From the NCBI GenBank assembly GCA_963736115.1, contig CAVTNR010000008.1:64001-128000 (forward strand): a stretch of 64,000 bases of DNA. The letters are read 5' to 3'. Position numbers and translations under genes: made by a program. The stretch's first letter is position 1; each line of letters opens with the position of its first letter. Positions 320 to 24,019 of the stretch are shown piece by piece. This DNA comes from an uncultured bacterium (lineage in GTDB: Bacteria > Zhuqueibacterota > QNDG01 > DTFT01). Under the pieces are notes generated by a model. That model was given only the letters and a program-made list of their open reading frames with translations. It ran no database searches and was not told the origin of the DNA.

Positions 320-2323
320 TCACCTCAGCATCCAGAGGAGAAGGGCCAGCAGTGTCAGCACCATGTAGGCGACGTACACCTGCAGGCGGCCTTCCTGTAT
401 GGACCGTATCCGGGAGAACAGACGGGACACACCCGCGAGCAGGGGCCGGTACAGTCTCTCGCGGCTCATGTCCGGCGTCTCGGTTTCGAACCTGCGGCCC
501 GCGGGAAAATAGCCCTCGGGCGGACGCACGTTCTTGCGCGTGCCGAGGAGAAAGCCGAACAGCTCGGTCGCGGGCTGGACGAACGAGGAGCCGGTGTACT
601 GCATGCGGGCCGTGGCGGGTTCGTATCCGCAGCCCCAGGTGACGGATTTCCGGGCCGCAGGCCGGCCGCGGCGCAGGCGCAGAAGCGCGATGCCGCCGGC
701 CGCGAGAACCAGAAAGCCGGAAACCGCCGCGATTTTCCATAGCCATTCTGAAATATCCGCTGTTTCCGTCAGAGGCACGGGGCCGAAGACCGCAGCCGCG
801 GCCGGAATCACGGTACTGAACAGGGCGGCCCAGGCCAGGCCGCCCAGGACGCAGAATGCGGCCGGAATCGCCATGGGAACCGTCATCGAAGCCGGGGATT
901 CAGTAGCGTCCGCGCCCGCGTCCGAGCGCGGCGAGCCGAGAAAGGAGACGCCGAAGGCTTTAATATAAACAATCAGGGAGAGCCCGAAGACGAGCGCGAG
1001 AACCGAGGCCGCGCCTGCCATGGAAACGGCCGTGGACGGGTCCGCTTCGGTCACACCCCGCCACAGTCCGGACAGCAGGAGGAATTCCCCGAAGAACCCG
1101 TTGAAAGGAGGCAGTCCGGAGGCGGCGAGGGATCCGGCGAGAAAGAACGCGGCCGTGAGCGGCATGCGGCGCGACAGGCCGCCGAGCCGATCCATCTCGC
1201 GCGTGGCCGCGGCCTTGACCGCGGATCCGGCCGCGAGAAACAGCGTTCCCTTGAATGCCGCGTGATTGACCGTGTGCACGAGCGCGGCCGCGAAACCGAG
1301 AAACGCCACGGACTGGAGGCCGGCGGCCCGGCCCACGGTCGCGACGCCGAGCGCCAGGCAGACGATGCCGACGTTCTCGATGCTGGAATAGGCGAGCAGG
1401 CGCTTGAGGTCGCGCTGGGCCAGGGCGAAGAGCACGCCGGTCAGCGCGGACACGGCGCCGACCGCGATCAGCGTCCATCCCCACCAGGCGTCCGGAACGC
1501 CGAGAAAACCGAGGGTCCGGATCAGCCCGTACAGCCCGGTCTTGATCATCACGCCGGACATCAGCGCGGAAACGTGGCTCGGCGCGGCAGGATGCGCGTC
1601 GGGCAGCCAGACGTGCAGGGGGACGAATCCCGCCTTGGCGCCGAAACCGATCAAGGCCAGGACAAAGGCGGCGGACGCGGCCGGACCCGCCAGACTGCCG
1701 CTGAACGCGGCGAAATCCGCCGTGCCCGCGGCGTTCGCGAAGGACAGGAACATCGGGATGAGAAAGGCGGTTCCGACGTGCGCGGCGACGAGATAGATGA
1801 ACGCGGCCCTGCGCACGCCTTCCTCCCGTGGTCGAAGGCGACCAGAAAGAAGGACGACAGCGCCATGGTCTCCCAGGCCAGCAGGAAGAAGAGGGCGTTG
1901 TCCGCGAGACAGACGCCGATCATGCCGCAGACCAGGGCGTTGAAGGGGAGCCAGGAGCGGCCCGCGCTGGCCGGGGTCATGGCCGCCGAGATAGTCCGGG
2001 CCGTACCAGGCGGACAATGCGCTGAGGACGACGATCGGGACGAGGAAAAACGCGGCGAGCGGATCCAGGTGAAAGGCGAAAGAACCGAACGGCATCGGCC
2101 ACGGCCAGGCCTTCCGGATCGGCGCCAGACCGGCGAGCACGCGGCAGGCCGGAATCAGCACCAGGACGGCCGCGATCACGACGCCCGCGGGACCGACGCG
2201 GCGGCCGAAGCCGCTGTCAGCGCGGAACAGCCGGGGCGCGATTCCGGAGGCCAGGAGAACGGCGAATGCGGCCAGAACGGGAATCATGCCGGTCCCCGAA
2301 ACGTCCATCCGTTCACGCGGCAT
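320..2323 (-). CDS. Proton-conducting antiporter-like membrane subunit (HyfB/NuoL-M family)
   Basis: Motifs GFGAKAGFVPLHVWLPDAHPAAPSHVSALMSGVMIKTG, DLKRLLAYSSIEN, NHAAFKG and TWGCGY..ARMQYT. The segment FFLLAWETMALSSFFLV lies in another frame (ORF 1651-1980), i.e. two compensating indels near 1830-1985. Confidence 0.9.
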   Translation of the reverse strand: MPRERMDVSGTGMIPVLAAFAVLLASGIAPRLFRADSGFGRRVGPAGVVIAAVLVLIPACRVLAGLAPIRKAWPWPMPFGSFAFHLDPLAAFFLVPIVVLSALSAWYGPDYLGGHDPGQRGPLLAPLQRPGLRHDRRLSRGQRPLLPAGLGDHGAVVLLSGRLRPREEGVRRAAFIYLVAAHVGTAFLIPMFLSFANAAGTADFAAFSGSLAGPAASAAFVLALIGFGAKAGFVPLHVWLPDAHPAAPSHVSALMSGVMIKTGLYGLIRTLGFLGVPDAWWGWTLIAVGAVSALTGVLFALAQRDLKRLLAYSSIENVGIVCLALGVATVGRAAGLQSVAFLGFAAALVHTVNHAAFKGTLFLAAGSAVKAAATREMDRLGGLSRRMPLTAAFFLAGSLAASGLPPFNGFFGEFLLLSGLWRGVTEADPSTAVSMAGAASVLALVFGLSLIVYIKAFGVSFLGSPRSDAGADATESPASMTVPMAIPAAFCVLGGLAWAALFSTVIPAAAAVFGPVPLTETADISEWLWKIAAVSGFLVLAAGGIALLRLRRGRPAARKSVTWGCGYEPATARMQYTGSSFVQPATELFGFLLGTRKNVRPPEGYFPAGRRFETETPDMSRERLYRPLLAGVSRLFSRIRSIQEGRLQVYVAYMVLTLLALLLWMLR

Positions 2324-3014
2324 CCTCCCCGTCCAGGGACGCGGGAAAGGCCTTTTCGAGTTTTTCCACTTCGGCCAGAATCGCGGCCTCGGACGGCCTT
2401 TCGCGGAGCATTTTTTTCATCTCCGGCTGATGCAGCAGAAAGGCGAGACGCGACAGGAGCCGGATGTGCTTCCGCACGGTCGGGCTGAGCAGAATGAAGA
2501 TGACGCTCACGGGCTTCTGGTCGATCGCGCTGAAATCGACCGGCTTTTTCAGAAAGACCAGGGCGATTTCGGGCCTGTCCACGGGCAGAACGATGGGCGT
2601 CCGCGGGTGGGGGATGGCGACGCCGTTCCCCATGGCCGTGGACCCGAGCGTCTCGCGCGCCAGCAGCATGCGGAACAGAAAATCCCGGTCCACGCCCTCC
2701 GGAAGCCGGATGCGCCGGACAGCCTCGGCCATGGCCGTTTCCATCGAATTGCCCGGCACGTCGTAGAAAATGCCGCCTGTCCGCAGGGCGCTGGCGACGG
2801 TCAGCCGGTCCCCGCCGGACGCGTTCCGGTCCGCGGCGAATTCCGGGGACACCGGCACGCCCGCGGCCGTGGCCCATTCCAGCAGTTCAGTCCGGTTGAA
2901 GCGCAGGCGGCCCTGGACGCGCATCGCCGGCAGTCCGCTCCCCTCAATCCATTTGCGGATTTTGGACTCCGTGACATTCAGCAGACGCGAGGCGTCTTTC
3001 AGATTCAGTTCCAT
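2313..3014 (-). CDS. Excisionase-type HTH fused to a PTS EIIA (PtsN/Fru-type) domain
   Basis: N-terminal LKDASRLLNVTESKIRKWI..LPAMRVQGRLRFNR (HTH_17-like). EIIA motif RETLGSTAMGNGVAIPHPR retains the phospho-acceptor His. Overlaps the start of the hyfB-like gene. Confidence 0.88.
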   Translation of the reverse strand: MELNLKDASRLLNVTESKIRKWIEGSGLPAMRVQGRLRFNRTELLEWATAAGVPVSPEFAADRNASGGDRLTVASALRTGGIFYDVPGNSMETAMAEAVRRIRLPEGVDRDFLFRMLLARETLGSTAMGNGVAIPHPRTPIVLPVDRPEIALVFLKKPVDFSAIDQKPVSVIFILLSPTVRKHIRLLSRLAFLLHQPEMKKMLRERPSEAAILAEVEKLEKAFPASLDGEDAA

Positions 3015-3398
3015 TCACGCATTCCATTGTTGACTGTTTTTTTTGTCCGCATGTACGGACGCTCCGATGCCATGCAGTCGCCGCCGCTCATAGAACGGCG
3101 GGATCCGGCCGGTTTCATCAGAAGATGCCGTTCCGAGGGATGGGTCGGGATGGCCCATACAGAGGGCCGCGGCTGCCGGTCGATAAAATAAGGAGGGGGC
3201 GTTCAGCGTCCCCTGAAGGGACGCCGCTGCATGCGTTGAAACACTCCATCGAGGTTCAAGCTCAAGAATAATGCCCCCGGAGACCGAACCGGGGGCGCCA
3301 TCCGTCTTCTCTATATGCACATTCCTCCGGTTCGTCGGGACCGACGATCCGACGGTCCGGGGAATCATCCGCAAAATGGGACCTTCAAAAGCCCGCGG

Positions 3399-3899
3399 TT
3401 AAAGGCCGGTCGCCGGGCCGCCTTCCGGCCAGTCTTCCTTGAGTCCGTTCATGCGGTCCGTCAGGTCCGCAAGCTCGTCGCGCAGGCTCTGAATTTCCCG
3501 GTCCGCGTCCTCCCGGTTCATGTACCCCGCGGATTCGCGCCGTAAAGCCTCCACTTCGACGTGCATCTGATCGACATTGGCCGTGTTGTTCTCGAGCTGA
3601 TCGGCCAGCGCGTCGATTTTCCTTTCCGTCGAATCGATGCGTTTCTCGATCATGTCGATGCGGCGGTCCAATTGCATCCACTCGTCTTTCCCGATCCCCC
3701 CGGCCGCGTCCCGGGCGGGCATCAATCCCGCCAGTTCCTCCCGGGTCACGTAATTGGTAAGTGTTTTTTTTGGAACCCGCTGAAGGACTTTCTCTTTCGT
3801 GGCGTATTCCACCTTGGCTGTCTTCGGCTTTGCGGCTTTTTTCACCTGCTTTTTCGCCTTGGGCCGGACAGCCGGTTTCTTCTTTGCGGCTTTAGCCAT
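3399..3899 (-). CDS. Hypothetical protein with Lys/Ala-rich basic N-terminus and acidic coiled-coil C-terminus
   Basis: MAKAAKKKPAVRPKAKKQVKKAAKPK followed by a heptad-patterned region; G-rich RBS-like sequence upstream. Confidence 0.7.
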   Translation of the reverse strand: MAKAAKKKPAVRPKAKKQVKKAAKPKTAKVEYATKEKVLQRVPKKTLTNYVTREELAGLMPARDAAGGIGKDEWMQLDRRIDMIEKRIDSTERKIDALADQLENNTANVDQMHVEVEALRRESAGYMNREDADREIQSLRDELADLTDRMNGLKEDWPEGGPATGL

Positions 3900-4198
3900 G
3901 AGTCGATCCCCCCGAAAATGGGTTGTTGGGTTGGAGAGGTTATTTCAAAAATAATGGAATTTTCGGAAAAAGTCAACAAGCTTTTTTCTAATCCTGCAAT
4001 TTTCATATGGTTTCAGCCGGGCGGGATGGAGCAGGTTACACGCCGGCGGGACTGCACGACGAGAAACGAGCGTATTATAACTGAAAATACTGAAATTGCA
4101 TATAACGATAAGACCTGAAAGGTCTTTCAGACCATTCAGGTCTTTTCGAAAATTTCAAGTCTTTTGGACACACCCGGGGTCAAATTTGGAAATCGACA

Positions 4199-6417
4199 TT
4201 ACTTCATTAAAATCATTTTCTTGGATAATGTTCTGCCTTTCGAATGAAGGCGGCATACGTAGACTCCGGACTGTAGTTCTTCCCCTGCATCACTTAATCC
4301 GTTCCATGTCCTGGCATGAAACCCTGCCGGCAGATCTACTGCGGACCAAAGTCCTCACCCGGCGTCCAAACGCGTTGAAAACCGTGACTTCGACAGGTCC
4401 GGCAGAAGCCAGGCTGAATCGGACGACGGTTGAGGAATTAAAGGGATTCGGGTAATTGGCGTATAATCCGAAGGATTCCGGCTCAAGTCCGGGAATGCCT
4501 GAATCCGGAAGAGAAGGATGCGATCTCCTCATCCATCCATTCGAACCGGGCCGCCAGCCAGTACTTCAGGTAATTCACTTCGTCGCTGTATGTGTGGAAG
4601 GATTCAAAAATTCTTGGAACCGGCCAGAATCCCTCTCCGCGCTCTCCGGGCCCGGGCCACATCCCGAAATTCCGGGCCTGGGCTTCGGTCAGCGTGTCCG
4701 CCATGGCGTCGACCAGCGCGAGCACGTTTTCCGTGGAGAGAACGGTTTTTCTCAGGGACTGCCAGCGGACGCGGATGCGGCTCCGAAAAGCCGGGTCCTC
4801 CAGCAGTTTTTTCCAGAAGAAGGGCGGCGGGCTGCCGTCCGCCATGGCCTGCGGATGAGAAGTCAGATTGTCTATCTGCCAGTCCCCGGGGCCTTCCGCT
4901 CCGTAATAATCCGCGTTGCCGATGCCCAGATCCGCGTCCCACACCGGGCCCGCGGCCAGCCTGCCGCCGCGGCTGTCCCTCTCCTTGGAAAAGAACGCGC
5001 TGAGCCTGTAGCCGTCCACGTTCTTGCCGATTTCGTTGAGAATGAAGTGGTCGGTGAATGCGTCCGCGTCGATGAAGCGGCCGTAACCGTTCACCGGGTC
5101 GGCCGCGTCCGGGCCGTTCATCATCGTTTCGAAATCGCGGATGAAGCCGCTGATGTAGGTTTTCTGCTCCGGACGGATGGCGTCGTCCGCGGGGTCGTGG
5201 TACTGATAGGAAATGCGCTGGAAGGCGCCCGGCCACGGCGGAACCGCGGACATGAAAAAATCATTTCCGGTTTTGTCGATCTTCACGATGTATCCGCCGG
5301 TGAGCGCGTCTCCTGAAATATCGTCCGCGTTCAATTCAGCGACTGCCACGCGGTTCCGGTCCCGCTTGATTTTTTCCATCAGCACGTACACGCCCCGGGG
5401 CCGGCCGTTCAGAACCAGCTCGCAGAACCGCGTGCGGCTGGCGTACCGGCCCATGCGGATGGAAAGCCGATACAGGAGCGCGTTCCGCATCAGGGAGCGG
5501 TCCACGTACGGGCCGTAGAGAACCCAGTCGTTCTCCCGTGGGAATCCGAGCAGGGGCACGTTCCGGCTCGTTCCGTCCGTGTTCCGGATCTCGAGATTGT
5601 AGGATTTTTTCGGATACCCGGCCGAGCTCTGGCCGCGGATCTCCATGCCCGCGGGCCCGGAATACGCGTTCGGCGGATCCGTGGACATGTTCCGTTCTCC
5701 CGGGCCGTGGTCGATGACGGACAGATCCACGGTCGTGCGCTGTTCCGGGCTCAGCACGCGGCCGCGGGTCCGGACGCAGACCAGGGGCAGGTTCGAGGAC
5801 ACCGGGGGAGGAAGCGTCGTGTCCAGTTCAAGGGAAACCCAGAGCAGGAAGTCCGGATCGCCCGGCGCCGCGTTGAAGCCCTGCAGGGCCAGGAGGTTCG
5901 TTCCGACGGCCAGATCCGGGACCACTGAGGTGATGTCGAATACGCGCGGTTCCGCGCTGGCCTCGTGGCCGGCCGTCGCCCTGGAGTTGAACCGGGCGTT
6001 CGGCGGCGCGTTCGCGTCCGCGATTCTCCGTCCGTTGATGAAGGCAATGAAACCGTCGTCGTAACGGATCTTGAGCGTCAGCGACTGCGACGCGGCGACC
6101 ATGGCCTCAGTGACGGTAAAGAGGGCGCGCATCATCGCAGTCCGGTCCGCGCCGAGCGCATCCGTTTTCATCGCGGCCCCGAGGTCCAGCCCGATCCACG
6201 GTCCATAGAGGCCGGAGTCGTCGTAACCCGCGCCCCCCAAAGCGGCCGTCCACGCGGCGTCGTCGAAAGCCGCATTCTGGCGCCACGCGGAATTCACGGT
6301 CGTGAGCGGCACGAGAATCCGTTTCGGGCCGTCTCCGGGGACGAGCGGAACGATTTGCGACCGTCCCGCGGAACCGAACAGGAGAAAGAGAGAGACGGTT
6401 CCGATAAGAATCCGCAT
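4199..6417 (-). CDS. Secreted CotH kinase family protein with C-terminal T9SS/FlgD-type sorting domain (indels near 4500 and 4330)
   Basis: Signal peptide; IRGQSS..YPKKSY, DRSLMRN, GVYVLMEKIK and GPVWDAD CotH motifs. Other frames continue with NYPNPFNSSTVVRF..VRTL and WNGLSDAGEELQSGVYVCRLHSKGRTLSKKMILMK-stop at 4199. Confidence 0.85.
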
Positions 6418-6507
6418 GCACACTCCAGGGCTTGAGATCCGCCGCCGGCGCATCGGGGCGGGAACGCGGTCGAAGCTTCGTCCTCCGGCCGCTGGGGCGG
6501 TCAGTCG

Positions 6508-6715
6508 ATCGGGCTGTCAGAAGCCCGCTTACCGTCTAAAATAGAATACCTGCAATTTGGTGAATGCGGGCTTCTGACAGCTCCGACGGGTCTGTTCCCC
6601 CGGCTTCGCCGGACCAAGCAATGAGATTTGTTCATTATTGAAGGCCCGCCTTTTATCTTCAATAATTCAAAAATATAATCGCTTGATCCCGCGAAGCGGG
6701 GCGGTGCCCTTCATC
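6508..6715 (+). repeat. Composite palindromic intergenic element, copy 1 of 4; carries two micro-element inserts (6600-6644, 6656-6700)
   Basis: ATCGGGCTGTCAGAAGCCCGC...GCGGGCTTCTGACAGCTCCGA inverted repeat; aligns by eye with 32774, 36247 and 62272. Confidence 0.85.
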
Positions 6716-6751
6716 CCATTTTCCTTTAATCCCCAGCTTCTTACGGCAGAG

Positions 6752-8694
6752 TCATCTAGTCCGAACGATTTTTCGGGTCCGGACCGAACGGTCCGTTTTC
6801 AGGACGAGCAGGTACACGCCGGCCGGGAGGTCTCCGGCCGTGAACGAAACACTGCGGCCGCCTTCGGCCGCGGATCCGGAACGGAGCGTGCGGACCCTGC
6901 GACCCAGACAGTCGTACAGGATCAGCGAGACGGTGCCCGCTTCCGGGAGCGTCCAGGCGACCGATGCGGAGCCGGAACGGGATTTGGGTGGATGTCCATT
7001 CCCGGTTCCGCCGTCGATCCGGTCCCGCGGTGCGCGGACGGACGAGGCCGTGTCAGGCGCCGGCCAGGTTCTTCCCGTCCAGGTCCCAGGCTCCGTTCGG
7101 CGCGGGAGTCCCATGTGGCAGTAGCGCGATGACGGCCAGGTCCGCGGTCTTAGCGGCCTCGGATGCGTCGAAATCAAGCGTGCCGCACCGTGTCGTTCAC
7201 GGCGATCCAGGCAGCGCCGGACCCGGAGAGGGCGCCGTCCGCGGCATGCGGCCCTGAATCCCGCGCCACGGTCCCGGATCCGTCGTTCATGCGCCAGGCC
7301 GCGGCCAGGGCAGCGGAGAAGGGATGGGCGTCATCATCCGGCCCAAGTTACCTCCGGTTTCCACCGGCCGATACATCCACTCCCGCAGAACCGAATCCGG
7401 CAGGGCCGCGGACCAGACCCTCACCTCGCTGACTGTCGACGGCCGCGAAATCCGGACGGCCGGCCGCGGCGTCCTGTCCGATCGCGATTCCGGCTGTTCC
7501 GTCCACGCTTCCCACCGCGGACCAGTCCGCGGCCGCGGTGCGGATTCCGTCCTGCATCAGGACGAGGCGGCCGCCCCGGTCGAAAACCGCGGCGATGTGG
7601 TGCCAGCGTCCGTCCGCGATCACGGGCCCGGAGACATTCGTCCGGACGGAGCCGTCCGCCGCGTTCACCCGCCATTTGCCCTCGTCGATGAGGTCGATGG
7701 AGAATCCCCGGTTGCGGTCGGACGATCCGTCCTTGTTGGAAATCAGAACCGGCCGGCCCGACCACCCGTTCGTGCGCACGCAGCATTCGATCGTGAAACC
7801 GGCGTCCGCGCCGAAACGGAACGCGGGCCGGTCCGGCGCGGAGACAAAGCCGCTCCGGCCGTCCAGCCGTATCGCATATTCCGGAACTCGCAGGCTGTCC
7901 GTCTCCCAGCGGTGCGGGTTCTCCCGCGGCCGTGTGCCGCCGCCGGAGACGATGAAGAAGGTCCGCATCTCCTCGAGCGTGGACCCGCCGTGATGCGTGC
8001 CGAGCCCCCCGTGGTCCGTGAGCGCGATGACCATCCAGTCCTCATCCGCGTATCCCGGCCTGGAACGCATCGCGGCCAGCACTTCGCCGACACGGCCGTC
8101 CGCGGTTTCGATGGCGTTCCGGTAAGCCATGTTGTCCGGATCGAATCCGGACGCGTGGCCTTCGGCGTCGATGGCGCCGAGTTGGACGAAGAGAGCGGCG
8201 GGATCCCCGTGGACCAGCAGGTCCACCGCGCGGTCGACCGTTCGTTCATCGGACCAGTCCCCGGCAGAGACATCCGCGCCGTGGGGCATGGCGGTGTTCA
8301 GGTCCGGCCAGTAGACGAACCATCCGGACGAAAAATCCGGATGCGCGTCCTTCAGCCTCCGGAACAGCATGGGAAAGAGATCGAACCGGCTGTTTGAGAA
8401 GGTGTTGTCCGTGACCCCGTGTTTGCCGTTCCAGACTCCGGTGAACACGGAGGACCAGCAGGGGCCGCTTTTTGTCGGCGGCCGGGAGAGGGCCCACCAG
8501 GAGAAGGCGCTCCCTTCGGCCAGGCCGGACAGATGAGGCGTAGAGCATAACAGCAGGGCGTCGGGTCTGCACCCGTCCACGCCGAGGATGAGCAGGCGGG
8601 ACGCGGCCGCGGGCGCCGGCGACAGTGCGGCGGCAAGCAGAACGACCGCCACGCCGCGAATGCAGGCGGATCCGATTTTTCTGAACCGGTTCAT
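6752..8694 (-). CDS. Secreted alkaline phosphatase/nucleotide pyrophosphatase-phosphodiesterase family protein with LamG domain and T9SS-type C-terminus (several indels 7000-7430)
   Basis: LILGVDGCRPD, TKSGPCWSS, IDAEGH and TDHGG..HGG motifs; LamG DGRWHHIAAVFDR; C-terminus ILYDCLGRRVRTL..LPAGVYLLVL..TRKIV. Confidence 0.82.
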
Positions 8695-8845
8695 GCGTAC
8701 AAGATACGAACGGGACGGAACCGAATCAAGGAGGATCTGGCGAGCCGAAATGATTTTTCGCTTGTTTCGGTGCATAGAGTCACTTATTTTATACAAGTTC
8801 CGAGGGCATTCCGCGGTTCACCCAGGATGAGGCTTCCATCCGGCC

Positions 8846-9877
8846 ATGAACGGCCACGCGTACACCGACATCGACCTGTGCTCCGTCATTCCGGCCCTTT
8901 GCGAGGGGTCGGTATCGGAGCGTGACACCGCGGCTTTCGCGAGGGTCTGCGTGCGGCTTTCCATCGCGACCCTGATGTTCCTGCAGTCGAGGGGTTACCG
9001 GATCATGGATGAGGCGGGAGGCGGCCCGTCGGTTGAGGATACGGCCGCGGATGCGGTGGCGGATCTCTTCGAGCGGGACGCCGCAGGGGAATACGTCCGG
9101 TTCCGCCGTTATTTCAGCCCGCACCTTGAAAAGACCGCATCGAACGCCGAATGGCTCGTGCTGCTTCGGCGGCTGGTGACGCGGCGCGTTCAGCAGGCCC
9201 TGTCGCGCGTGTTCCGGGAACGCGATCCCGAGGGTGCCCGGATCCGCCGCGGCCTGAAAATCGCCGCGCTGAAACACGGCCGGTGGAAACTCGAAACCGC
9301 ATTCGGCAGGCAGTGGATCAGGCTCGATCACGGCATTGTCCGCCCGGGAACCGGCGGCCTTTCCCTGCTGCAGGACGGACACCTCTCCGCTTTGGCCTGC
9401 GGCCGTTTCAATCCCCGCGACACTCTGCCCGTGATCCTCGACAAGCTTTCCGATTTCCTGATCGAGCATCCTGAACTGACGGCCCGAATCGAACTGAACG
9501 ACGCGGTGCGGCTCGTGCGCGGTTACCGGAAGGGCGCGGAACGGGCCGATGTGCCGCCGCCCTCCGAATCGCCTCTGTCTCCGGACCTGATCCAGGCGAT
9601 CGAGTCCGGACGCGACAGCCTGTTCCTGAAAATCCAAAGGGATTACAGGGCCAAAGGGAAACTCGATGAGAAAGAAGCTGAGGCTTTCCGGCTGGCCCTT
9701 TCGGACATGGTGGAGGATGTGCTCGCGGGCGACCCGCTGGGGCCTTATTTCGAGTATCTCCGCGTCCGTTTAAAGGGTTTGGATGAAGAACGCTACCGGA
9801 CCCAACTCCGTACAAAATTTGAATATATGGCCAAATTGCTGAAGCGGAAAATTGAAAGAGCGGTTTCTATTTTCTGA
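8846..9877 (+). CDS. Divergent ECF-like RNA polymerase sigma factor (putative)
   Basis: Region-2-like segments VEDTAADAVADLF and WLVLLRRLVTRRVQQAL; basic helical C-terminus; lies directly upstream of a zinc anti-sigma gene. Motif match is by eye only. Confidence 0.55.
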   Translation: MNGHAYTDIDLCSVIPALCEGSVSERDTAAFARVCVRLSIATLMFLQSRGYRIMDEAGGGPSVEDTAADAVADLFERDAAGEYVRFRRYFSPHLEKTASNAEWLVLLRRLVTRRVQQALSRVFRERDPEGARIRRGLKIAALKHGRWKLETAFGRQWIRLDHGIVRPGTGGLSLLQDGHLSALACGRFNPRDTLPVILDKLSDFLIEHPELTARIELNDAVRLVRGYRKGAERADVPPPSESPLSPDLIQAIESGRDSLFLKIQRDYRAKGKLDEKEAEAFRLALSDMVEDVLAGDPLGPYFEYLRVRLKGLDEERYRTQLRTKFEYMAKLLKRKIERAVSIF

Positions 9878-10013
9878 GGATTCGGGGAATGGGGGTATTA
9901 ATAAGATAGGAGTTCATAGAAAAAAATTTGTTGGAAAGCCGAATACATGGAGTTCACCCTTTAGGGTTTCATTGATAAAAGTGCCGATATAAACATGTCC
10001 GAAAGCCTCGCCT

Positions 10014-10056
10014 TCCCGCTTCGCGGGACCAATCGACAGATTCCCGCTATTGAAGG
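10014..10056 (+). mobile_element. 43-bp micro-element inserted in a hairpin between the sigma-like and anti-sigma genes
   Basis: T-CCCGCTTCGCGGG-ACCAATC-13 nt-TATTGAAGG. Removing it restores the hairpin GCCTGC-TTC-GCGGGC. Confidence 0.65.
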
Positions 10057-10111
10057 GCTTCGCGGGCTCGGCATTTCGGACCTACAAGTACTCAATTGTT
10101 ATAATTCAGAA

Positions 10112-10198
10112 TCCGGAACCTGGAACCCAGAACCTGGAACCCAGAACCCGAACGATCTCGACCATGAACTATGAACCATGAACTATGAACTATGAACT
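10112..10198 (+). repeat. Heptamer tandem repeats (GGAACCT/AGAACCC type, then ATGAACT type) running into the start codon at 10192
   Basis: ccggaacc tggaacc cagaacc tggaacc cagaacc, then atgaact atgaacc atgaact atgaact atgaact. Confidence 0.85.
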
Positions 10199-11067
10199 TG
10201 CAGGAAATGTTAAACTGCCCAGATAAAAACCGTATCGAGCTCTTCCTGCTCGGCGGCGTGACCGACGCTGCCGAGGCCGCACGGATTCGCTCGCACCTTT
10301 CCGCGTGCCCGGCCTGCAGGCTGGCCGCGGAAGAGGCCGAAGCCTTTCACCGGGTGGCCGGATCCATTCCCTCCGAACAGATCGACCGGATGGTCCGCCG
10401 GGTGCTGTCCGGAGCCGCGGTCGGGCCGGCCGTCGCAGGACGCGTTCTCGAGCTCAAACCGATGGCCCTGCCGGGGCATTCTCCACGCCGCACGCTCCTC
10501 GCCGCGGATCACGGCCCGACTGGCCGTTTCGAGCCGGTACAGACCTATGCCAATGTCGAGGCTGACCTCGTCGCCAGGCTCCTCAGGGACAATGCGTCCC
10601 GGGAACTGTCGCTCTATCTGGTCGAATCCGGGGGAGAGCCGGCCGCGAACCGCGTTCTCGAGATCGAGGGCCAGGAGGAACAATACGCCGCGGACGAGAC
10701 CGGCCGCGTGGAGCTTCAGGGTTTGTCCGAAGATGAACTGAAGGGGCGGACCCTCCGCATCCGCTCCTCCATCGCGTTTTTCGATCTGGCGCCGGTGCAG
10801 GATCTCCGCGAGCGCATCCGTTTTGAAGGTCATTACGCGCTGCGGAACGCGGAATTCGACGAAATCCGCATTGAGACCGAGGAGGCGGAGGGCCGCACAC
10901 TCACGCGCATCCGGATTGAAAAGATACGCGGAGCCGGGGCGACGGCTGTCGTGGGCGTGAGTGTTTCGAGGCGCGGCGACTCTCCGCTGACCTCGCCCGT
11001 GGTGCGGGGCGCGGCTGTGTTCGAAGAGCTGGACCCGGAGCGGATCCTGAAGATCCGGATTTACTGA
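10192..11067 (+). CDS. Soluble zinc-binding anti-sigma (ZAS/zf-HC2) domain protein with beta-rich C-terminal domains
   Basis: N-terminal Cys followed by HLSACPAC (HxxxCxxC); no TM helix; linker contains RRTLLAAD. Confidence 0.75.
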   Translation: MNLQEMLNCPDKNRIELFLLGGVTDAAEAARIRSHLSACPACRLAAEEAEAFHRVAGSIPSEQIDRMVRRVLSGAAVGPAVAGRVLELKPMALPGHSPRRTLLAADHGPTGRFEPVQTYANVEADLVARLLRDNASRELSLYLVESGGEPAANRVLEIEGQEEQYAADETGRVELQGLSEDELKGRTLRIRSSIAFFDLAPVQDLRERIRFEGHYALRNAEFDEIRIETEEAEGRTLTRIRIEKIRGAGATAVVGVSVSRRGDSPLTSPVVRGAAVFEELDPERILKIRIY

Positions 11068-11120
11068 ACGGTTCCGGCCGACCGGCATCCGGAACCGGGG
11101 CCCGGGGAAACCATGAACGC

Positions 11121-13427
11121 ATGAAAACCATCGAACTCGAACAGGCGCGCTGCCGCCTGGCGGAACGCCTGGCCGGACCCGCTTCCGGCCATGAAAAACT
11201 GACGTTCATCGTCCGCTTTTTCAGGGCCGCCTCCCCGCAATTCAGCGTGGACGCCCTCCGATCGTACCATCTGGAGTTCTCCTCCCCCTTTTTGAAAACA
11301 GCTTCGGCCGCGGCGCTCGCCAACCGGCCTCCCGGATTTCTGCTGAACACGCTCGAATTGGTCCGCGTGTACCGCGAGCGGTTCGCGGACGACACCGCGG
11401 CCGACGATCTCGATCGCGCGGAGCGCGCCTGCCGGCTGGCTTTGCTGGAGACAGCCGTCGTGCTCGGCGAATGGGGGCCGGCCCGCGAATCGCTCGAAGC
11501 CCTGTCCGGCGAACGCCTGCCTGCGGAACCCGCGGACACGGAGGGTTCAGCGTCGCATTATCCCCTTGAAGCCTGCGGGAAACTGGCCGCGAGTCTGATC
11601 GGGCCCTGTCCCGCTGCGGCCGGCATTGTGCAATCCGTCGCGGACCGCTGGTCTTCGGAATTCGGGGGACAGACCGGGGACCGGCTGTGGCTTCTGTTCG
11701 CGCAGAAGGCGGATGAGAACGGGCCGGCGCATTCGGAGCCGGACTGCGGCTTCCTGATCGCGGCCGGACTCCGGACACGGGTCCGGCTCCACCCCGACGC
11801 AGCGGACGATACGATACGGCTGAACAACGACTGGGTGTCCCGATCGGAGCCGTTCCACAGGCTCATCCGGGACGCTTTGACCTCCATGCGGCCCATACTG
11901 GCGAAAACCGGGTATGCGGCGCCTTCGGATCAGCACGGCCACTTTCTGTTCGCCCTGTCCGAAAGGGAGGCGGCGTTTTACGGCAGGTCCCTGGAAGCGC
12001 CCCTGGCCCTTCTGGCCGCGGGCGGGCTGGTGAACGGTTACTACGGCCGGCCGCTCGTCCTGTTCCCAAATAGTACGGCCGTGACCGGCGGCGTGGACGG
12101 AGAAGGCCGCATTCTGCCCGTGGACAAGGACGGGTTGAAGGCCAAGCTTCATGCGGCTTTTTTCTCGCCCCTCAGACGCGTCGTGGTGCCGTGGCCGAAT
12201 CTCCAGGAAGCCGTTTCCGTCATCGAGAAGCTCCGGATTTCCCATCCGAACCGCAGACTCGATCTGCAGAGCGCGGATACGCTCGAAGCGCTCTGGAACG
12301 ACCGCAATGTCGCTGAGGCCGGACGAGTCACGACAGCGGTCAGGCTGACCGCGGGCCTGAGGCGGAACCGGAATCGGATCGCCTGGTCCGCGGCCTGGGC
12401 CGGCATTCTGCTCACCAGCGCCCTTCTGCTTCTGCCCCTGCTATGGCGGGACAGGAATCCCGCCTCGATCGACGTTTCCGGATCGGTGCTCGTGGCGAGG
12501 AGCGCGGGAGGCCGGGAATTATGGAAGTACGATTTCGGTGTCCCGCTGACGCGAAACCGTTATGCGGATCCTTCTCTCCGGGTTCGCGTTACGGATGCGG
12601 ACGGCGACGGCAGGCGGGAGGTGCTGTTCGGAGTCTATGAATCGACCGATCTGGGCGCGCTGAATGGATCGATTTTCCTTTTCAGCGCGGATGGGGATGT
12701 CCGTCTCCGCCTGAAAACGGGGCGGGCCATGAAATTCGGCGGTGCGCTCTACGAGGACCATTACCGCGTGGCGTTCGCGGACGCGGTCGATCTGGACGGG
12801 GACGGAGTGAAGGAGATTGTGTCGATTTCCTTCCATTATCCCGATTATCCCTGCTGCGTGAACGTCTGGAGCCTGTCCGGGGAGAAGCTGGGCGAGTACT
12901 GGCATTCCGGACAGCTGGAAAAGGCTGAGTACATTGACGCGGACGGGGACGGGGTCCGGGAACTGTTCCTGGCCGGTCAGAACAATGAATACCGCTGTGC
13001 CGTACTGGCCGTTCTCAAACCGCCCCGTCTGACCGGGGCCTCGCCCCAGACCCCGGCCGGCCATTACCGGGCGGAAGGGCTCGAAACAGGCGGGGAGATG
13101 CAGTATGTCCGTTTTCCGAAGAGCGTCCTAAGTGAACTGGCCTTGAACCGGGACACGGCTCTACATGCGGAGGAAAACAACGGACGAATCCGCGTGGGTC
13201 TGGCGAATCCGGCCGCATCGGCCGGCGGCACGCAATCTCATTTTATCTATTACGTTTTCGATCCGCGGTTCCGCCTTCTCGACGTGGACGTCGGGGACTG
13301 TTATTTCAGCAGGGTGTTTGAACTCAGGGGAAGGCCCCTGACCGATTCGGAACTGTCCAGGCCCGTCCTCCGTTTTGACGGGAAAGGATGGTCGCAAATT
13401 GAACAGGTTCGGGCCGGGTTGGAATAA
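11121..13427 (+). CDS. Lon (S16)-type protease domain + single TM helix + FG-GAP/VCBS-like repeat ectodomain; no AAA+ module
   Basis: FYGRSLEAPLAL (Ser290) and AVTGGVDGEGRILPVDKDGLKAKLHAA (Lys342) parallel DGPSAG and [25 protein letters not shown] of the Lon in this window. TM helix at about aa 420-442 after RRNRNR; three DxDGDG motifs. Confidence 0.8.
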   Translation: MKTIELEQARCRLAERLAGPASGHEKLTFIVRFFRAASPQFSVDALRSYHLEFSSPFLKTASAAALANRPPGFLLNTLELVRVYRERFADDTAADDLDRAERACRLALLETAVVLGEWGPARESLEALSGERLPAEPADTEGSASHYPLEACGKLAASLIGPCPAAAGIVQSVADRWSSEFGGQTGDRLWLLFAQKADENGPAHSEPDCGFLIAAGLRTRVRLHPDAADDTIRLNNDWVSRSEPFHRLIRDALTSMRPILAKTGYAAPSDQHGHFLFALSEREAAFYGRSLEAPLALLAAGGLVNGYYGRPLVLFPNSTAVTGGVDGEGRILPVDKDGLKAKLHAAFFSPLRRVVVPWPNLQEAVSVIEKLRISHPNRRLDLQSADTLEALWNDRNVAEAGRVTTAVRLTAGLRRNRNRIAWSAAWAGILLTSALLLLPLLWRDRNPASIDVSGSVLVARSAGGRELWKYDFGVPLTRNRYADPSLRVRVTDADGDGRREVLFGVYESTDLGALNGSIFLFSADGDVRLRLKTGRAMKFGGALYEDHYRVAFADAVDLDGDGVKEIVSISFHYPDYPCCVNVWSLSGEKLGEYWHSGQLEKAEYIDADGDGVRELFLAGQNNEYRCAVLAVLKPPRLTGASPQTPAGHYRAEGLETGGEMQYVRFPKSVLSELALNRDTALHAEENNGRIRVGLANPAASAGGTQSHFIYYVFDPRFRLLDVDVGDCYFSRVFELRGRPLTDSELSRPVLRFDGKGWSQIEQVRAGLE

Positions 13428-13459
13428 CCGGTTCCCATCCGGACTGCGGCACGGACCCG

Positions 13460-13481
13460 GGGCCCTTGAGGGCCTTTTTTT
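13460..13481 (+). terminator. Possible intrinsic terminator after the Lon-TM gene
   Basis: GGCCC-TTGA-GGGCC followed by a T run. Confidence 0.5.
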
Positions 13482-13733
13482 ATTGGATTTTCTGCGGCAA
13501 GCCGGGATGTTGCTATGTAAAGGTATCGGCGGGAGCAATCATACGGTCAATCAGGTTGACAAAGCCGAATGTCCATTTACCGGAATTTGAATTTTCACCC
13601 CCCCGGGCCCCCTCCCTTGCACCAGGGAGGGGGCGGGCCGGGGGATGCGGAATCGAAAAGCAGATCCGGCCATCCGGCCAGGAAAGGGGACAGGGAGCCG
13701 GCTGAGCCGGTCGGAGGCCGCCCCGGATCCCGG

Positions 13734-14024
13734 ATGATGCATTTCGAGATGGAACTGCCGGGTGTGCTCAACTGGAAATTCAGCACACTCGATGAGGCCG
13801 TGAGCCGGACCCTTCGGCTGATGATCCGGTCGGTGCCGGTCGCGAGGATTTACAACCTGAATGAGGACGGTGAAAGGGAGGGAATTTCCCTGTGGCTGGA
13901 AAAATGCGGTGTCGCGTGCCCGTCCTGCCTCGAGGATGAAGCCGTGGTCTTGATGTCCGGCATACCGGAGCAGTACGATGAACTGGCGGTGTGCCGGAAA
14001 TGCCAGTGCTCGTTTAAATTATAG
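13734..14024 (+). CDS. Small hypothetical protein with two CxxC pairs (probable zinc ribbon)
   Basis: CPSC...CRKC; GGAGG upstream; followed by a terminator. The ORF-track extension to 13569 looks non-coding. Confidence 0.6.
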   Translation: MMHFEMELPGVLNWKFSTLDEAVSRTLRLMIRSVPVARIYNLNEDGEREGISLWLEKCGVACPSCLEDEAVVLMSGIPEQYDELAVCRKCQCSFKL

Positions 14025-14061: not shown

Positions 14062-14094
14062 AAAGGCGGGTTCCTTCGGGGACCCGCCTTTTTT
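14062..14094. terminator. Bidirectional intrinsic terminator
   Basis: AAAGGCGGGT-TCCTTCGGG-ACCCGCCTTTTTT between convergent genes. Confidence 0.75.
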
Positions 14095-21168: not shown

Positions 21169-21624
21169 ATGTCCCAGGCCAAATCGTCCAAAAGCCGGGG
21201 ATTGGACCTGCTCGGCCCTATCGAGGAGGAGCTGGACTTCTTCTTTTCGCGGTTTTTCGGCTCTCCGTATCCCACCATTTACCGCAAGGAACTTTCCTGG
21301 CGGCCGCTTACGGATTTCTACGAAACGGATCTGGAATACGTGCTCCTGATGGAGCTGGCCCAGGTCAAGCCGGAGGACGTTTCCATCCAGCTTCAGGAGG
21401 GGATTCTGGCCGTGCGCGGAATGCGCAAAACATCGCCCCCGCGCGAAAGAAGACGATACCACAAGATGGAAATCAATTACGGCCCCTTCGAGCAGAAAGT
21501 GGCGGTTCCGGAGCCGGTCGACATGGATAAACTGTCCGCCTCATACCATGACGGATTTCTCGAAATCCGCATACCCAAAAAACGGCCGGACACCGGTCCG
21601 CGCATCGACATACAGGTGGAATAG
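21169..21624 (+). CDS. Hsp20/alpha-crystallin small heat-shock protein
   Basis: WRPLTDFYET; EINYGPFEQ; ASYHDGFLEIRIPK. Confidence 0.9.
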   Translation: MSQAKSSKSRGLDLLGPIEEELDFFFSRFFGSPYPTIYRKELSWRPLTDFYETDLEYVLLMELAQVKPEDVSIQLQEGILAVRGMRKTSPPRERRRYHKMEINYGPFEQKVAVPEPVDMDKLSASYHDGFLEIRIPKKRPDTGPRIDIQVE

Positions 21625-21631
21625 AAAACCG

Positions 21632-24019
21632 ATGAACGATCCGAATCCAGGCATTCCCCATCATCCGGGCGAGTTCGGGGAAATGCCCGAAATCCCGCAG
21701 GAACTCCCCATTCTCCCGATGACCAATGTTCTCGTTTTTCCCTACGTGGTCGCGCCCCTCGTCATCTCGGACGAGCGCCGCATCGCCGTGGTCAACGAGG
21801 CGTTGTCCGACCGCAAGATGGTCGGCCTGTTCGCCGTCCGGACGAAGACGGACGGCGACGCCGAACCGGACAGCCTGAAATTGTACGACGTCGGCACCGC
21901 GGTGTTCATCCTGAAAATGTTCCGTTATCCGGACGGCACCATGGGGCTCATGGTGCAGGGCCTCTCGCGCATCCGGCTGGAGAGCATCACCAAGGCGGAG
22001 CCCTTTCTCAAGGGCCGGATCCGGCCCATCCCCGAGGCCGCCGCGGATACGGTCAAGATCAAGGCCCTGACGCGCGAGGTCACCGAAATTTTCCAGCAGA
22101 TCGTCTCCCTGTCCGCCTTTCTGCCTGACGAGCTCGGCCAGGCGATCACCAACGTGGACAACCCGGGCCGCCTGGCGGACCTGGTCGTTTCGAACCTCAA
22201 GCTGGACATCGCTGAACGCCAGGCCATACTCGAAACCCTGGCCGTGGAAAACCGCCTGATCCGCCTGCTGACCCTGCTCAACCGCGAGCTGGAGCTCCTG
22301 AAGCTCGGGAACAAGATCCAGTCCGAGGTTAAAAACAAGATCGAGGACAGTCAGAAGGAATACTACCTCCGCGAGCAGATGAAGGCGATCCAGAAGGAGC
22401 TCGGGGACAAGGACGAGCGGACCGCCGAGATCGAGGAGCTGAAGAGCCGCATCGAAAAGGCCGCGATGCCCAAAGAGGCGCGCGAGGCGGCGGAGAAGGA
22501 GCTGGACCGGCTCTCCAAGATGCCGCCCCAGGCCGCGGAGTACACCGTCTCTCGCACCTATCTCGACTGGCTGATCACCCTGCCCTGGAGCGCCGGCACC
22601 GAGGACAACATAGACATCGTCAAGGCCAAGGCCATCCTCGATGACGACCATTACGATCTGACGGACGTGAAGGACCGCATCCTCGAGTTTCTCTCCGTGC
22701 GCAAGCTGAAGAGCACGTCCAAGGGACCCATCCTCTGCTTCGTCGGCCCGCCGGGCGTGGGCAAGACGTCGCTCGGGCGGTCCATCGCAGCGGCCATGGG
22801 GCGCAAATTCGTCCGCTACTCTCTCGGCGGCATGCACGACGAGGCGGAGATCCGGGGTCACCGGAGAACCTACATCGGGTCCCTGCCGGGCCGGATCGTT
22901 CAGGGCGTCCGCAAGGCGGGTTCGAACAACCCCGTTTTCATGCTCGACGAGATCGACAAGGTCGGCACCGACTTCCGGGGCGACCCCGCCTCGGCCCTGC
23001 TCGAGGTGCTCGACCCGGAGCAGAACAACACGTTCTCGGACCACTATCTCGAAGTGCCCTTCGACCTGTCGAAGGTGATGTTCATTACCACGGCGAACGT
23101 GCTCGACACCATCCCGCGGCCCCTGCTGGACCGCATGGAAGTGCTGCGCCTGCCGGGTTACATTCTCGACGAGAAGATCCAGATCGCGAAGAAATACCTC
23201 ATCCCCCGCCAGATCGAGGAGAACGGGCTGAAGCGGGGCCAGATCCGATTCGACGACGCAGCGGTGCGGCGCATCATCGAGCACTACACGCGCGAGGCCG
23301 GCCTCCGCAACCTCGAGCGCGAGATCGGCACCTGCTGCCGCAAAGTGGCCCGTCTCGTCGCGGAGGGGAAGGAGAAGCGCGTCCGGATCACGCCGGAGAA
23401 GGCGGCCGAATTCCTCGGCCCGCGCAAGTTCTTCTCCGAGGCCGCCCAGCGCACGGACGAGGTCGGCGTGGCCACGGGTCTGGCCTGGACGGCAGTCGGG
23501 GGCGAGATCCTCTTCGTCGAGGCCACGGCCATGACCGGCGGAAAAGGCCTGGTGCTCACCGGACAGCTCGGTGACGTGATGAAGGAGTCCGCCCAGGCCG
23601 CGCTGTCGTACATCCGGTCGAACACCGCCCGGTACGGCATTCCGGACGACTTTTTCGCGGCCCGGGACATCCACATCCACATTCCAGAAGGCGCCACGCC
23701 CAAGGACGGGCCGTCCGCGGGCGTCACGCTGGCCACGGCGCTGGTGTCCCTGCTGGTGAACAAGCCGGTGAAGCACGACGTGGCCATGACGGGCGAGATC
23801 ACGCTCCGCGGGAAGGTGCTGGCCGTGGGCGGCATCAAGGAAAAGGTGCTCGCGGCCCAGCGGTCCGGCATTACCCATGTGATCCTGCCGAAGCTCAATG
23901 AAAAGGACCTTGTGGAGATACCGGAGCACATCCGGAAGCGAATGACGTTTCATTTCGCGGAGTGGCTGGACGACGTGCTGGCGTTGACCCTTGTGGATAA
24001 AAAGAAGAAAAAGAAATAG
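21632..24019 (+). CDS. lon: ATP-dependent protease La
   Basis: LON N-domain; Walker A GPPGVGKTS; LDEIDK; PKDGPSAG with catalytic Lys 43 residues downstream. Confidence 0.97.
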   Translation: MNDPNPGIPHHPGEFGEMPEIPQELPILPMTNVLVFPYVVAPLVISDERRIAVVNEALSDRKMVGLFAVRTKTDGDAEPDSLKLYDVGTAVFILKMFRYPDGTMGLMVQGLSRIRLESITKAEPFLKGRIRPIPEAAADTVKIKALTREVTEIFQQIVSLSAFLPDELGQAITNVDNPGRLADLVVSNLKLDIAERQAILETLAVENRLIRLLTLLNRELELLKLGNKIQSEVKNKIEDSQKEYYLREQMKAIQKELGDKDERTAEIEELKSRIEKAAMPKEAREAAEKELDRLSKMPPQAAEYTVSRTYLDWLITLPWSAGTEDNIDIVKAKAILDDDHYDLTDVKDRILEFLSVRKLKSTSKGPILCFVGPPGVGKTSLGRSIAAAMGRKFVRYSLGGMHDEAEIRGHRRTYIGSLPGRIVQGVRKAGSNNPVFMLDEIDKVGTDFRGDPASALLEVLDPEQNNTFSDHYLEVPFDLSKVMFITTANVLDTIPRPLLDRMEVLRLPGYILDEKIQIAKKYLIPRQIEENGLKRGQIRFDDAAVRRIIEHYTREAGLRNLEREIGTCCRKVARLVAEGKEKRVRITPEKAAEFLGPRKFFSEAAQRTDEVGVATGLAWTAVGGEILFVEATAMTGGKGLVLTGQLGDVMKESAQAALSYIRSNTARYGIPDDFFAARDIHIHIPEGATPKDGPSAGVTLATALVSLLVNKPVKHDVAMTGEITLRGKVLAVGGIKEKVLAAQRSGITHVILPKLNEKDLVEIPEHIRKRMTFHFAEWLDDVLALTLVDKKKKKK

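Follow-up and report, generated by a model that had tools for sequence, protein, structure and literature searches.

The stretch analysed here, referred to below as the window, comprises 64,000 nucleotides (nt) of contig CAVTNR010000008.1 (positions 64,001 to 128,000 of the forward strand), from assembly GCA_963736115.1 of an uncultured bacterium of the Zhuqueibacterota; all positions given are those of the window. Between positions 8846 and 13427 it contains three open reading frames (ORFs), all on the + strand, named g1, g2 and g3, which specify proteins of 343, 291 and 768 amino acids (aa), respectively (Table 1). An earlier inspection of the letters alone, termed here the sequence-only reading, had described them as three co-oriented genes for a sigma factor, an anti-sigma factor and a membrane-anchored Lon-type protease; the number, order and orientation of the genes are borne out by the list of ORFs. 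The source genome (3.34 Mb in 31 contigs, 87% complete) has one copy each of g1 and g3. Compared with the orthologues in the same genus, the differences at codon positions 1, 2 and 3 amounted to 16, 10 and 48 for g1, 25, 12 and 51 for g2, and 72, 64 and 191 for g3. Since most fall at third codon positions, g1, g2 and g3 can be regarded as real genes under purifying selection.

Full-length g3 homologues were present in 9 of 60 relatives, and g1 homologues in 30 of the same 60, g1 being therefore more widely spread than g3. A scan of species genomes provided 25 loci linked to g3, in genomes titled as unclassified bacteria, Acidobacteria, Zixibacteria, Ignavibacteriales, Abyssobacteria and Bacteroidota. 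Searches of the ORFs of these loci with hidden Markov models (HMMs) found the order g1-g2-g3 on a single strand in 21 of the 25, with protein identities across loci that fall to 14–25%. Three other loci (L027, L029 and L031) are broken off by contig ends, while in L050 g1 is accompanied by two g3-like genes and by an ORF resembling g2, with HLETCAFC and RLAAQ, which was recognised by reading rather than by HMM. A protein of the zf-HC2 type, as is g2, follows g1 in 21 of the 22 g3-linked loci that hold g1 when scored by HMM, and in the 22nd (L050) by reading; g1 is always the first gene of the unit and adjoins the zf-HC2 protein. Recurrence of the triad in other genomes had been set beforehand as a test of the sequence-only reading, and the three genes are indeed kept together elsewhere, which is the opposite of the lack of co-occurrence that was to refute it. 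The g1-g2-g3 group is a conserved unit, kept in many sediment and soil bacteria. A literature search, whose scope excludes subscription journals and supplements, returned no description of this arrangement, in line with what had been stated earlier, and the cassette can be considered a real, conserved and apparently undescribed receptor-protease module. A tandem pair of g3 paralogues of ∼1030 aa each occurs in L050 (positions 2066–8262 of that locus) and in L051 (2082–8265).

Table 1. Coordinates of the features discussed, in window positions
Feature	Position	Strand	Remarks
g1	8846..9877	+	343-aa helical protein of a large family without a name; proposed to be the output, a transcription factor of sigma-like or other type that g2 keeps in check
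g1-g2 spacer	9878..10191	.	Unusually long, with tandem repeats
g2	10192..11067	+	Soluble 291-aa protein: N-terminal putative zinc anti-sigma domain, linker with L-A-A, C-terminal domain ending in ILKIRIY
H35-x3-C39-x2-C42 codons of g2	10294..10317	+	Putative zinc site; HxxxCxxC conserved
L103-A104-A105-D106 codons of g2	10498..10509	+	Candidate cleavage or docking site; A104 and A105 invariant
g3	11121..13427	+	768-aa predicted single-pass membrane protein: helical N-domain, Lon-like domain, transmembrane helix, FG-GAP domain
Helical N-terminal domain of g3 (aa 3-181)	11127..11663	+	Helices in the AlphaFold2 model; no match in Pfam or NCBIfam
Lon (S16)-like protease domain of g3 (aa 243-393)	11847..12299	+	Family profile against own Lon and PDB LonB; invariant G288, S290 and K342
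S290 codon	11988-11990	+	Lon-like domain of g3
K342 codon	12144-12146	+	Lon-like domain of g3
Transmembrane helix of g3 (aa 420-441)	12378..12443	+	The only one; preceded by RRNRNR
Extracytoplasmic beta-rich domain of g3 (aa 442-768)	12444..13424	+	FG-GAP-like repeat; proposed sensor
Terminator-like hairpin and T run	13459..13476	+	Directly 3′ of g3; consensus scan only
Promoter-like site TTTTCTGC-N16-GCTATG	13488..13517	+	Window copy of the TTTTCYAC-N17-CTAWT element
orf151, small Cys-rich ORF	13569..14024	+	51 nt past the site; in this genus, the candidate target
Type IX secretion cargo gene (phosphodiesterase, Laminin_G_3 and C-terminal sorting domain)	6752..8796	-	Divergent, upstream of g1

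The protease assignment of g3 was examined at the level of both the single protein and its family. Residues Ser290 and Lys342 (within YGRSLE and GLKAKLHAA), the three DxDGDG motifs (which begin at aa 492, 557 and 606) and the lone transmembrane helix after RRNRNR are all located as had been claimed. The further claim that g3 bears a Lon S16 domain stood when family profiles were used and failed with the single sequence: the Pfam Lon_C model (PF05362) scored under its gathering cut-off (13.7 versus 21.1 bits, E 0.046, aa 319–372 only), as it also did in a scan of the source genome (15.9 bits for g3), and it is for this reason that profiles were needed to reveal the kinship. The g3 family profile (22 sequences, which show 18–43% identity to the window protein) aligned over 136 columns with the canonical Lon of the source genome (hhalign 88.9%, E 2.4e-6), an 823-aa protein specified 8 kb downstream of g3 (window positions 21548–24019, + strand; PF05362 E 1.5e-92). 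The alignment sets S290 opposite the Ser of DGPSAG, K342 opposite the second Lys of GIKEK and T322 within MTGE; this Ser and this Lys form the catalytic pair of Lon. Against the PDB, the same profile matched the protease domain of A. fulgidus LonB (1.2e-5), 1xhk (5.7e-4) and 7p6u (5.3e-3). G288, S290 and K342 are invariant in all 22 members, T322 nearly so, and most members carry GDSIGLA, which is closer to Lon than the YGRSLE of the window protein. These comparisons indicate that aa 243–393 of g3 are related to Lon protease domains, with the residues of the catalytic pair aligned. g3 has no match to the Walker A pattern (a single chance match occurs among the 22 family members) and Pfam detected no AAA family in it at E ≤ 1, so that the earlier description of the protein as lacking a Walker A/AAA+ module was correct.

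It might be argued that the Lon-like domain is catalytically dead, and that g3 is a scaffold or sequestering receptor which holds g2 at the membrane and lets it go upon a signal, with no proteolysis involved. The Lon_C score under the cut-off would agree with this, as would the presence in the window of YGRSLE instead of the usual DGPSAG-type motif. However, the Ser and the Lys are retained in 22 of 22 members in spite of identities of 18–43%, T322 is nearly invariant, the motif of most members is the more Lon-like GDSIGLA, and the dyad is also found in those variants (see below) in which the outer domain is of a different type. We consider a dead protease very improbable.

The AlphaFold2 model of g3 (mean predicted local distance difference test score, pLDDT, 85.4) shows helices over aa 3–181, an alpha/beta region at aa 274–393, a long helix at aa 405–441 and a beta-rich C-terminal part. 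The N-terminal helical domain is proposed to dock the substrate, a role suggested by analogy with the N-domain of the CRISPR-associated protease CalpL. No N-terminal hydrophobic stretch was found in the 22 g3 members, and the Lys and Arg residues within the 15 positions on each side of the transmembrane helix, summed over these members, number 97 on the N-terminal side and 31 on the C-terminal side; this charge bias fits an N-in orientation in each of the 22. The bias and the lack of a hydrophobic N-terminus place the N-domain and the protease domain in the cytoplasm and the FG-GAP domain outside, so that the topology predicted for the window protein, with the protease inside and the repeat domain outside, holds family-wide.

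The outer domain is the variable part of the receptor. In the window protein the FG-GAP_3 model matched aa 492–567 at just over the Pfam cut-off (27.6 versus 26.9 bits), and the g3 profile retrieved from the PDB the YesW/PL11 propeller (6.8e-7) for this region. In two loci from genomes titled Bacteroidota (L050 and L051), immunoglobulin-like and Laminin_G_3 (LamG) domains take the place of FG-GAP outside, while the cytoplasmic module, including the Ser-Lys dyad, and the transmembrane helix are kept. A separate protein of 506 aa, P0009, shares with g3 only the transmembrane helix and the outer domain, its cytoplasmic part being a weakly HTH_17-like segment. As P0009 joins the g3 outer domain to another cytoplasmic part, this domain looks like a portable sensor module. 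PADLOC gave a weak match of g3 to its CARF_LON model (E 0.0093).

As regards g2, it had been described as a soluble anti-sigma protein of the HxxxCxxC type, and this description is supported. The protein contains HLSACPAC at aa 35–42 and passes the Pfam zf-HC2 cut-off (25.9 versus 22.2 bits), and no transmembrane segment was found in it, nor in g1. The HxxxCxxC motif is present in 23 of 24 members of the g2 family, of which just eight individually reach zf-HC2 at E ≤ 0.1. When the family profile was compared with solved anti-sigma domains, it matched RsiW (5wuq_C, 3.9e-4), RslA (3hug_B, 0.0092), ChrR (0.77) and DdvA (1.1). From these profile matches, g2 appears to be a zinc anti-sigma domain protein. 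Its N-terminal domain is followed by a variable linker and then by a Leu-Ala-Ala motif, both alanines of which are invariant in the 24 sequences; its C-terminal domain belongs to no recognised family. Inspection by eye revealed no such motif in the sequences of the shorter g2-like proteins of loci that lack g3 (see below). In the CalpL system, CCaCalpT is cut within LAAA, between A204 and A205 (bioRxiv 10.1101/2024.05.08.593097). The invariant Leu-Ala-Ala of g2 parallels this motif, which strengthens the analogy with CalpL, and by this likeness it may be the site at which g2 is cut. The spacer that separates g2 from g1 (∼315 nt) contains repeats within 10107–10198, namely 2.4 copies of GAACCTGGAACCCA (10116–10148) and five of ATGAACT (10164–10198), the latter array overlapping the start codon of g2. 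The same-genus locus has a related repeat; the gap between g1 and g2 in other lineages is of 0–100 nt.

The g1 family is a large one, with 1526 representatives at E ≤ 1e-3 and 700 at E ≤ 1e-30, and has no name; searches of g1 against Pfam, NCBIfam and PADLOC gave no match. Four fusions that contain a g1 domain (P0113, P0103, P0100 and P0135) showed no Pfam domain either. In P0113 (951 aa) the g1 domain is C-terminal and the first 600 residues have no Pfam match; this protein could be a true fusion or an artefact of gene calling. The association of g1 with g2 extends beyond g3: 12 further g1 loci from genomes of the same phylum (L057–L068) lack g3, and in 11 of them g1 is followed by a short zf-HC2 protein (87–226 aa in this set). 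In the three of these loci that were checked with Pfam, two response regulators of the REC-DUF4388 type come next, and no Lon-like receptor. The 12 loci form one clade in the g1 tree (support 95/93). Given that g1 is more widely distributed than g3 and retains its zf-HC2 partner where g3 is missing, g1-g2 looks like the core pair. From its gene neighbours, g3 looks like one of at least two input modules for this pair, the REC-DUF4388 regulators being the second type.

A short conserved site was found downstream of g3. Of 19 non-redundant loci, 11 have the 9-mer TTTTCTACA, with at most one mismatch, in the 330 nt past g3; 20 rounds of shuffling gave a maximum of 6–8. Alignment of the site from 15 loci gave TTTTCYRCA, 12 nt, G, 3 nt and CTAWT, with six invariant columns. 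When scored with a weight matrix, 16 of 22 loci were over the 95th percentile of 352 control stretches, and of the 14 loci that were not used in training, seven scored over the maximum of these controls. In all 16 loci with a site, an ORF begins 6–197 nt past it. Nine of these ORFs specify proteins with a type IX secretion sorting domain, the others being FG-GAP, LVIVD or other propeller proteins, or dockerin proteins. In five whole genomes the exact pattern occurred once each, and in four of the five that copy was the site after g3. In the window, the loose pattern gave a lone match, at 13488–13517; the tight pattern gave four matches in the source genome, with no evident regulon. The 12 loci that lack g3 have no consistent copy of the downstream site. 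The possibility that the site is an RNA element was considered and rejected, as it has no Rfam match and no consensus base pairs; the aligned copies are best read as an element of the DNA, with a geometry like that of a promoter. The ORF that follows the site in the window, orf151, is conserved in three same-genus loci and has paired CxxC motifs and no Pfam match. Its true start may be an internal Met, and a strong terminator-like hairpin follows it at 14062–14091.

These data bear on whether g3 is a signal transducer at all. It could instead be a membrane-anchored housekeeping or processing protease that removes g1 and g2, or mislocalised cargo, its outer domain serving only to anchor or localise it. 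The signal, the ligand and the activation step of a transducer would all have to be deduced, these lineages are rich in type IX cargo genes, and ATPase-less Lon-like proteases with other roles exist. This is improbable, however, in view of the strict linkage of g3, in fixed order, to two regulator genes in 21 of 25 loci, the exchange of the outer domain over a constant cytoplasmic module, the occurrence of the same outer domain on the helix-turn-helix-like cytoplasmic part of P0009, and the existence of one conserved target site per genome.

Three known arrangements can be compared with g1-g2-g3. In the CalpL-CalpT-CalpS system, an ATPase-less Lon-type protease activated by oligomerisation cuts a soluble anti-sigma protein that holds an ECF-like (extracytoplasmic function) sigma factor (bioRxiv 10.1101/2024.05.08.593097; PMC11417357). 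Both systems would have an ATPase-less Lon-type Ser-Lys protease with an N-terminal domain of its own and a C-terminal sensor, encoded in a three-gene unit, and a similar motif in the anti-sigma protein, the LAAA at which CalpT is cut and the Leu-Ala-Ala that is the candidate cut site in g2. They differ in several respects. g3 has no SAVED or CARF Pfam domain and its sensor is extracellular, beyond a transmembrane helix; g2 is of the zf-HC2 type and has no MazF-like/DUF2080 domain, unlike CalpT; and g1, unlike CalpS, is not recognisable as a sigma factor. The PDB matches of the g3 profile at E ≤ 0.1 did not include CalpL. No Cas1 was detected in the source genome, at its 87% completeness, and no repeat array in positions 1–30000 of the window, in agreement with the statement that there are no cas genes nearby.

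The sequence-only reading had presented the arrangement as a new receptor-protease route across the membrane, distinct from that of DegS/RseP. The distinction stands. In DegS/RseP-RseA and RsiW, the anti-sigma factor is itself a membrane-spanning protein, which distinct site-1 and site-2 proteases cleave (PMC7593790). Such regulated intramembrane proteolysis would share with the present case the signal-dependent proteolysis of a protein with a zinc, or class I, anti-sigma domain, and the g2 N-domain does match RsiW; here, however, g2 has no transmembrane segment and it is the protease g3 that spans the membrane. The novelty of the route was overstated, since BlaR1/BlaI had been overlooked. In BlaR1/MecR1, an extracellular sensor is joined to a cytoplasmic protease domain that cleaves the soluble regulator BlaI/MecI (PMC7593790). 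As with g3, and with g2 as the presumed substrate, a membrane protein with its sensor outside and its protease inside would act on a soluble cytoplasmic regulator. A receptor-protease route being already represented by BlaR1/BlaI, the logic is less unprecedented than had been claimed. BlaR1 is nonetheless an M56 zinc metalloprotease with a beta-lactam sensor that cuts a repressor directly, whereas g3 is a Lon-type serine protease by its profile, with FG-GAP or LamG domains, and its presumed substrate inhibits an activator. With respect to canonical Lon (LonA/LonB, MEROPS S16), the protease domains are related and the Ser and Lys align; g3 differs in that it has no AAA+ module or Walker A motif, has another N-domain, and is a single-pass protein resembling a receptor, with its protease domain facing the cytoplasm. 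By these analogies, g1-g2-g3 appears to be a variant of the BlaR1/BlaI and CalpL/T/S logic that is a member of neither family.

The whole is best explained by g1-g2-g3 acting together as a proteolytic switch across the membrane, with one nearby promoter under its control, a reading to which we would assign a probability of about one half. In this switch, g3 would sit in the inner membrane with the FG-GAP domain facing outward and with the docking domain and the ATPase-less Lon-type Ser-Lys protease domain in the cytoplasm, where g2, the soluble protein of the zinc anti-sigma type, would bind g1 and keep it inactive. The protease would be switched on by a signal received at the outer domain, of which ligand-driven clustering, as in CalpL, is the simplest form. 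Activated g3 would then cut the g2 linker at or near the invariant Leu-Ala-Ala, and g1 would be set free, possibly after further degradation of the g2 remnant. Free g1 would direct transcription from TTTTCYAC-N17-CTAWT just downstream of g3. The output would usually be a type IX secretion cargo gene for a propeller or lectin protein, and in this genus the small Cys-rich ORF. The analysis shows the gene order, the domain relationships, the invariant residues, the topology and the conserved site; that g2 binds g1 and is cleaved by g3, what kind of signal is sensed, and that g1 acts on the site are what we infer.

Several results, in addition to the Lon_C score given above, weigh against this reading, and most of them concern g1. 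PDB searches with g1 profiles of 12, 26 and 141 sequences were empty, the Sigma70 Pfam models at E ≤ 1 matched none of 26 g1 members, and genome scans with PF04542 and PF08281 missed g1. Comparisons by hhalign of g1 with ECF sigma profiles from the same and related genomes, whole or by domain, gave values of 0.2–4.2%, while a control in which one sigma4 half was compared with the other gave 99.9%. At the level of sequence, then, g1 has no detectable similarity to proteins of the sigma-70 family, and the ‘sigma region-2-like motifs’ that had been seen in it are left without statistical support from Pfam, PDB profiles or hhalign. The conserved site has weaknesses of its own: its weight matrix was built from eight sites and the motif was drawn by eye from eight loci that were later scored, it is missing in 6 of the 22 loci, and the window copy has a 16-nt spacer and is followed by a small ORF instead of a cargo gene. 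In the sequence upstream of g1, the control 95th percentile was exceeded in just 1 of 23 loci and the 9-mer was not enriched; the absence of a copy at this position means that the autoregulation usual for ECF sigma factors is not seen. Finally, the g3 loci are kin, so that the locus counts overstate their independence.

The negative results with g1 would be expected if the same switch operated with an output that is not a sigma factor, g1 being a new transcription activator, an RNA-polymerase-associated factor or another effector, and the zinc anti-sigma-type domain having been recruited to sequester it. Besides the failure of every sequence and profile comparison with the sigma-70 family, this explanation can draw on the length of g1, whose 343 aa exceed the ECF sigma factors of the source genome by ∼150 aa, and on its AlphaFold2 model (pLDDT 91.1), in which an N-terminal helical block and a C-terminal four-helix block are separated by a middle block with a beta hairpin. 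Weak leads were all that the Atlas provided (HTH_psq 0.88; Sigma70_r2 0.85, from 19% of one cluster; r4 0.84), under the level that counts. On the other side, the solved proteins matched by the g2 domain (RsiW, ChrR and DdvA) carry the name of anti-sigma factors, the partners of which are presumably all ECF sigma factors; two boxes with a fixed 17-nt spacer have the geometry of a sigma-70-type promoter; and, on a reading of the model, the helices of the N- and C-terminal blocks have lengths that would suit sigma2 and sigma4. An output of this non-sigma kind is rather unlikely.

A bolder form of the proteolytic switch can be put forward only tentatively, as a possibility that we would not bet on at even odds. 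It would have g1 found a large family of sigma-like or RNA-polymerase-directing proteins, beyond the reach of profile detection and with its own promoter type, TTTTCYAC-N17-CTAWT. Members would be held by a soluble zinc anti-sigma protein and released when the cytoplasmic, ATP-independent Lon domain of a single-pass receptor cuts at Leu-Ala-Ala. The input would be exchangeable (FG-GAP or LamG receptors, and REC-DUF4388 regulators in one clade), and the output would be one dedicated type IX cargo gene.

If the proteolytic switch is true, it would represent a simple and widespread way of carrying an outside signal across the membrane, in which a single-pass receptor with a built-in, ATP-independent Lon protease cuts a soluble inhibitor, and it would tie the CalpL logic of CRISPR to ordinary envelope sensing. 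A function would be assigned to g1, a family of >1500 sequence clusters, and to the g3 cytoplasmic module, both of them large and unannotated, a new promoter type would be defined, and there would be a pointer to how Zixibacteria, Ignavibacteria and their relatives turn on single type IX cargo proteins. Should g1 be sigma-like, signals from outside would have a third way of reaching a sigma-type factor, in addition to intramembrane proteolysis and partner switching.

As for the DNA upstream of the unit, the divergent type IX secretion cargo gene is broken in the window, with an in-frame stop after codon 482 and a change of frame before the sorting domain. It is either a pseudogene or the product of an assembly error; in a same-genus relative it is a single ORF of 652 aa. 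A CotH kinase-like protein is specified beyond it, at 4483–6453 on the - strand.

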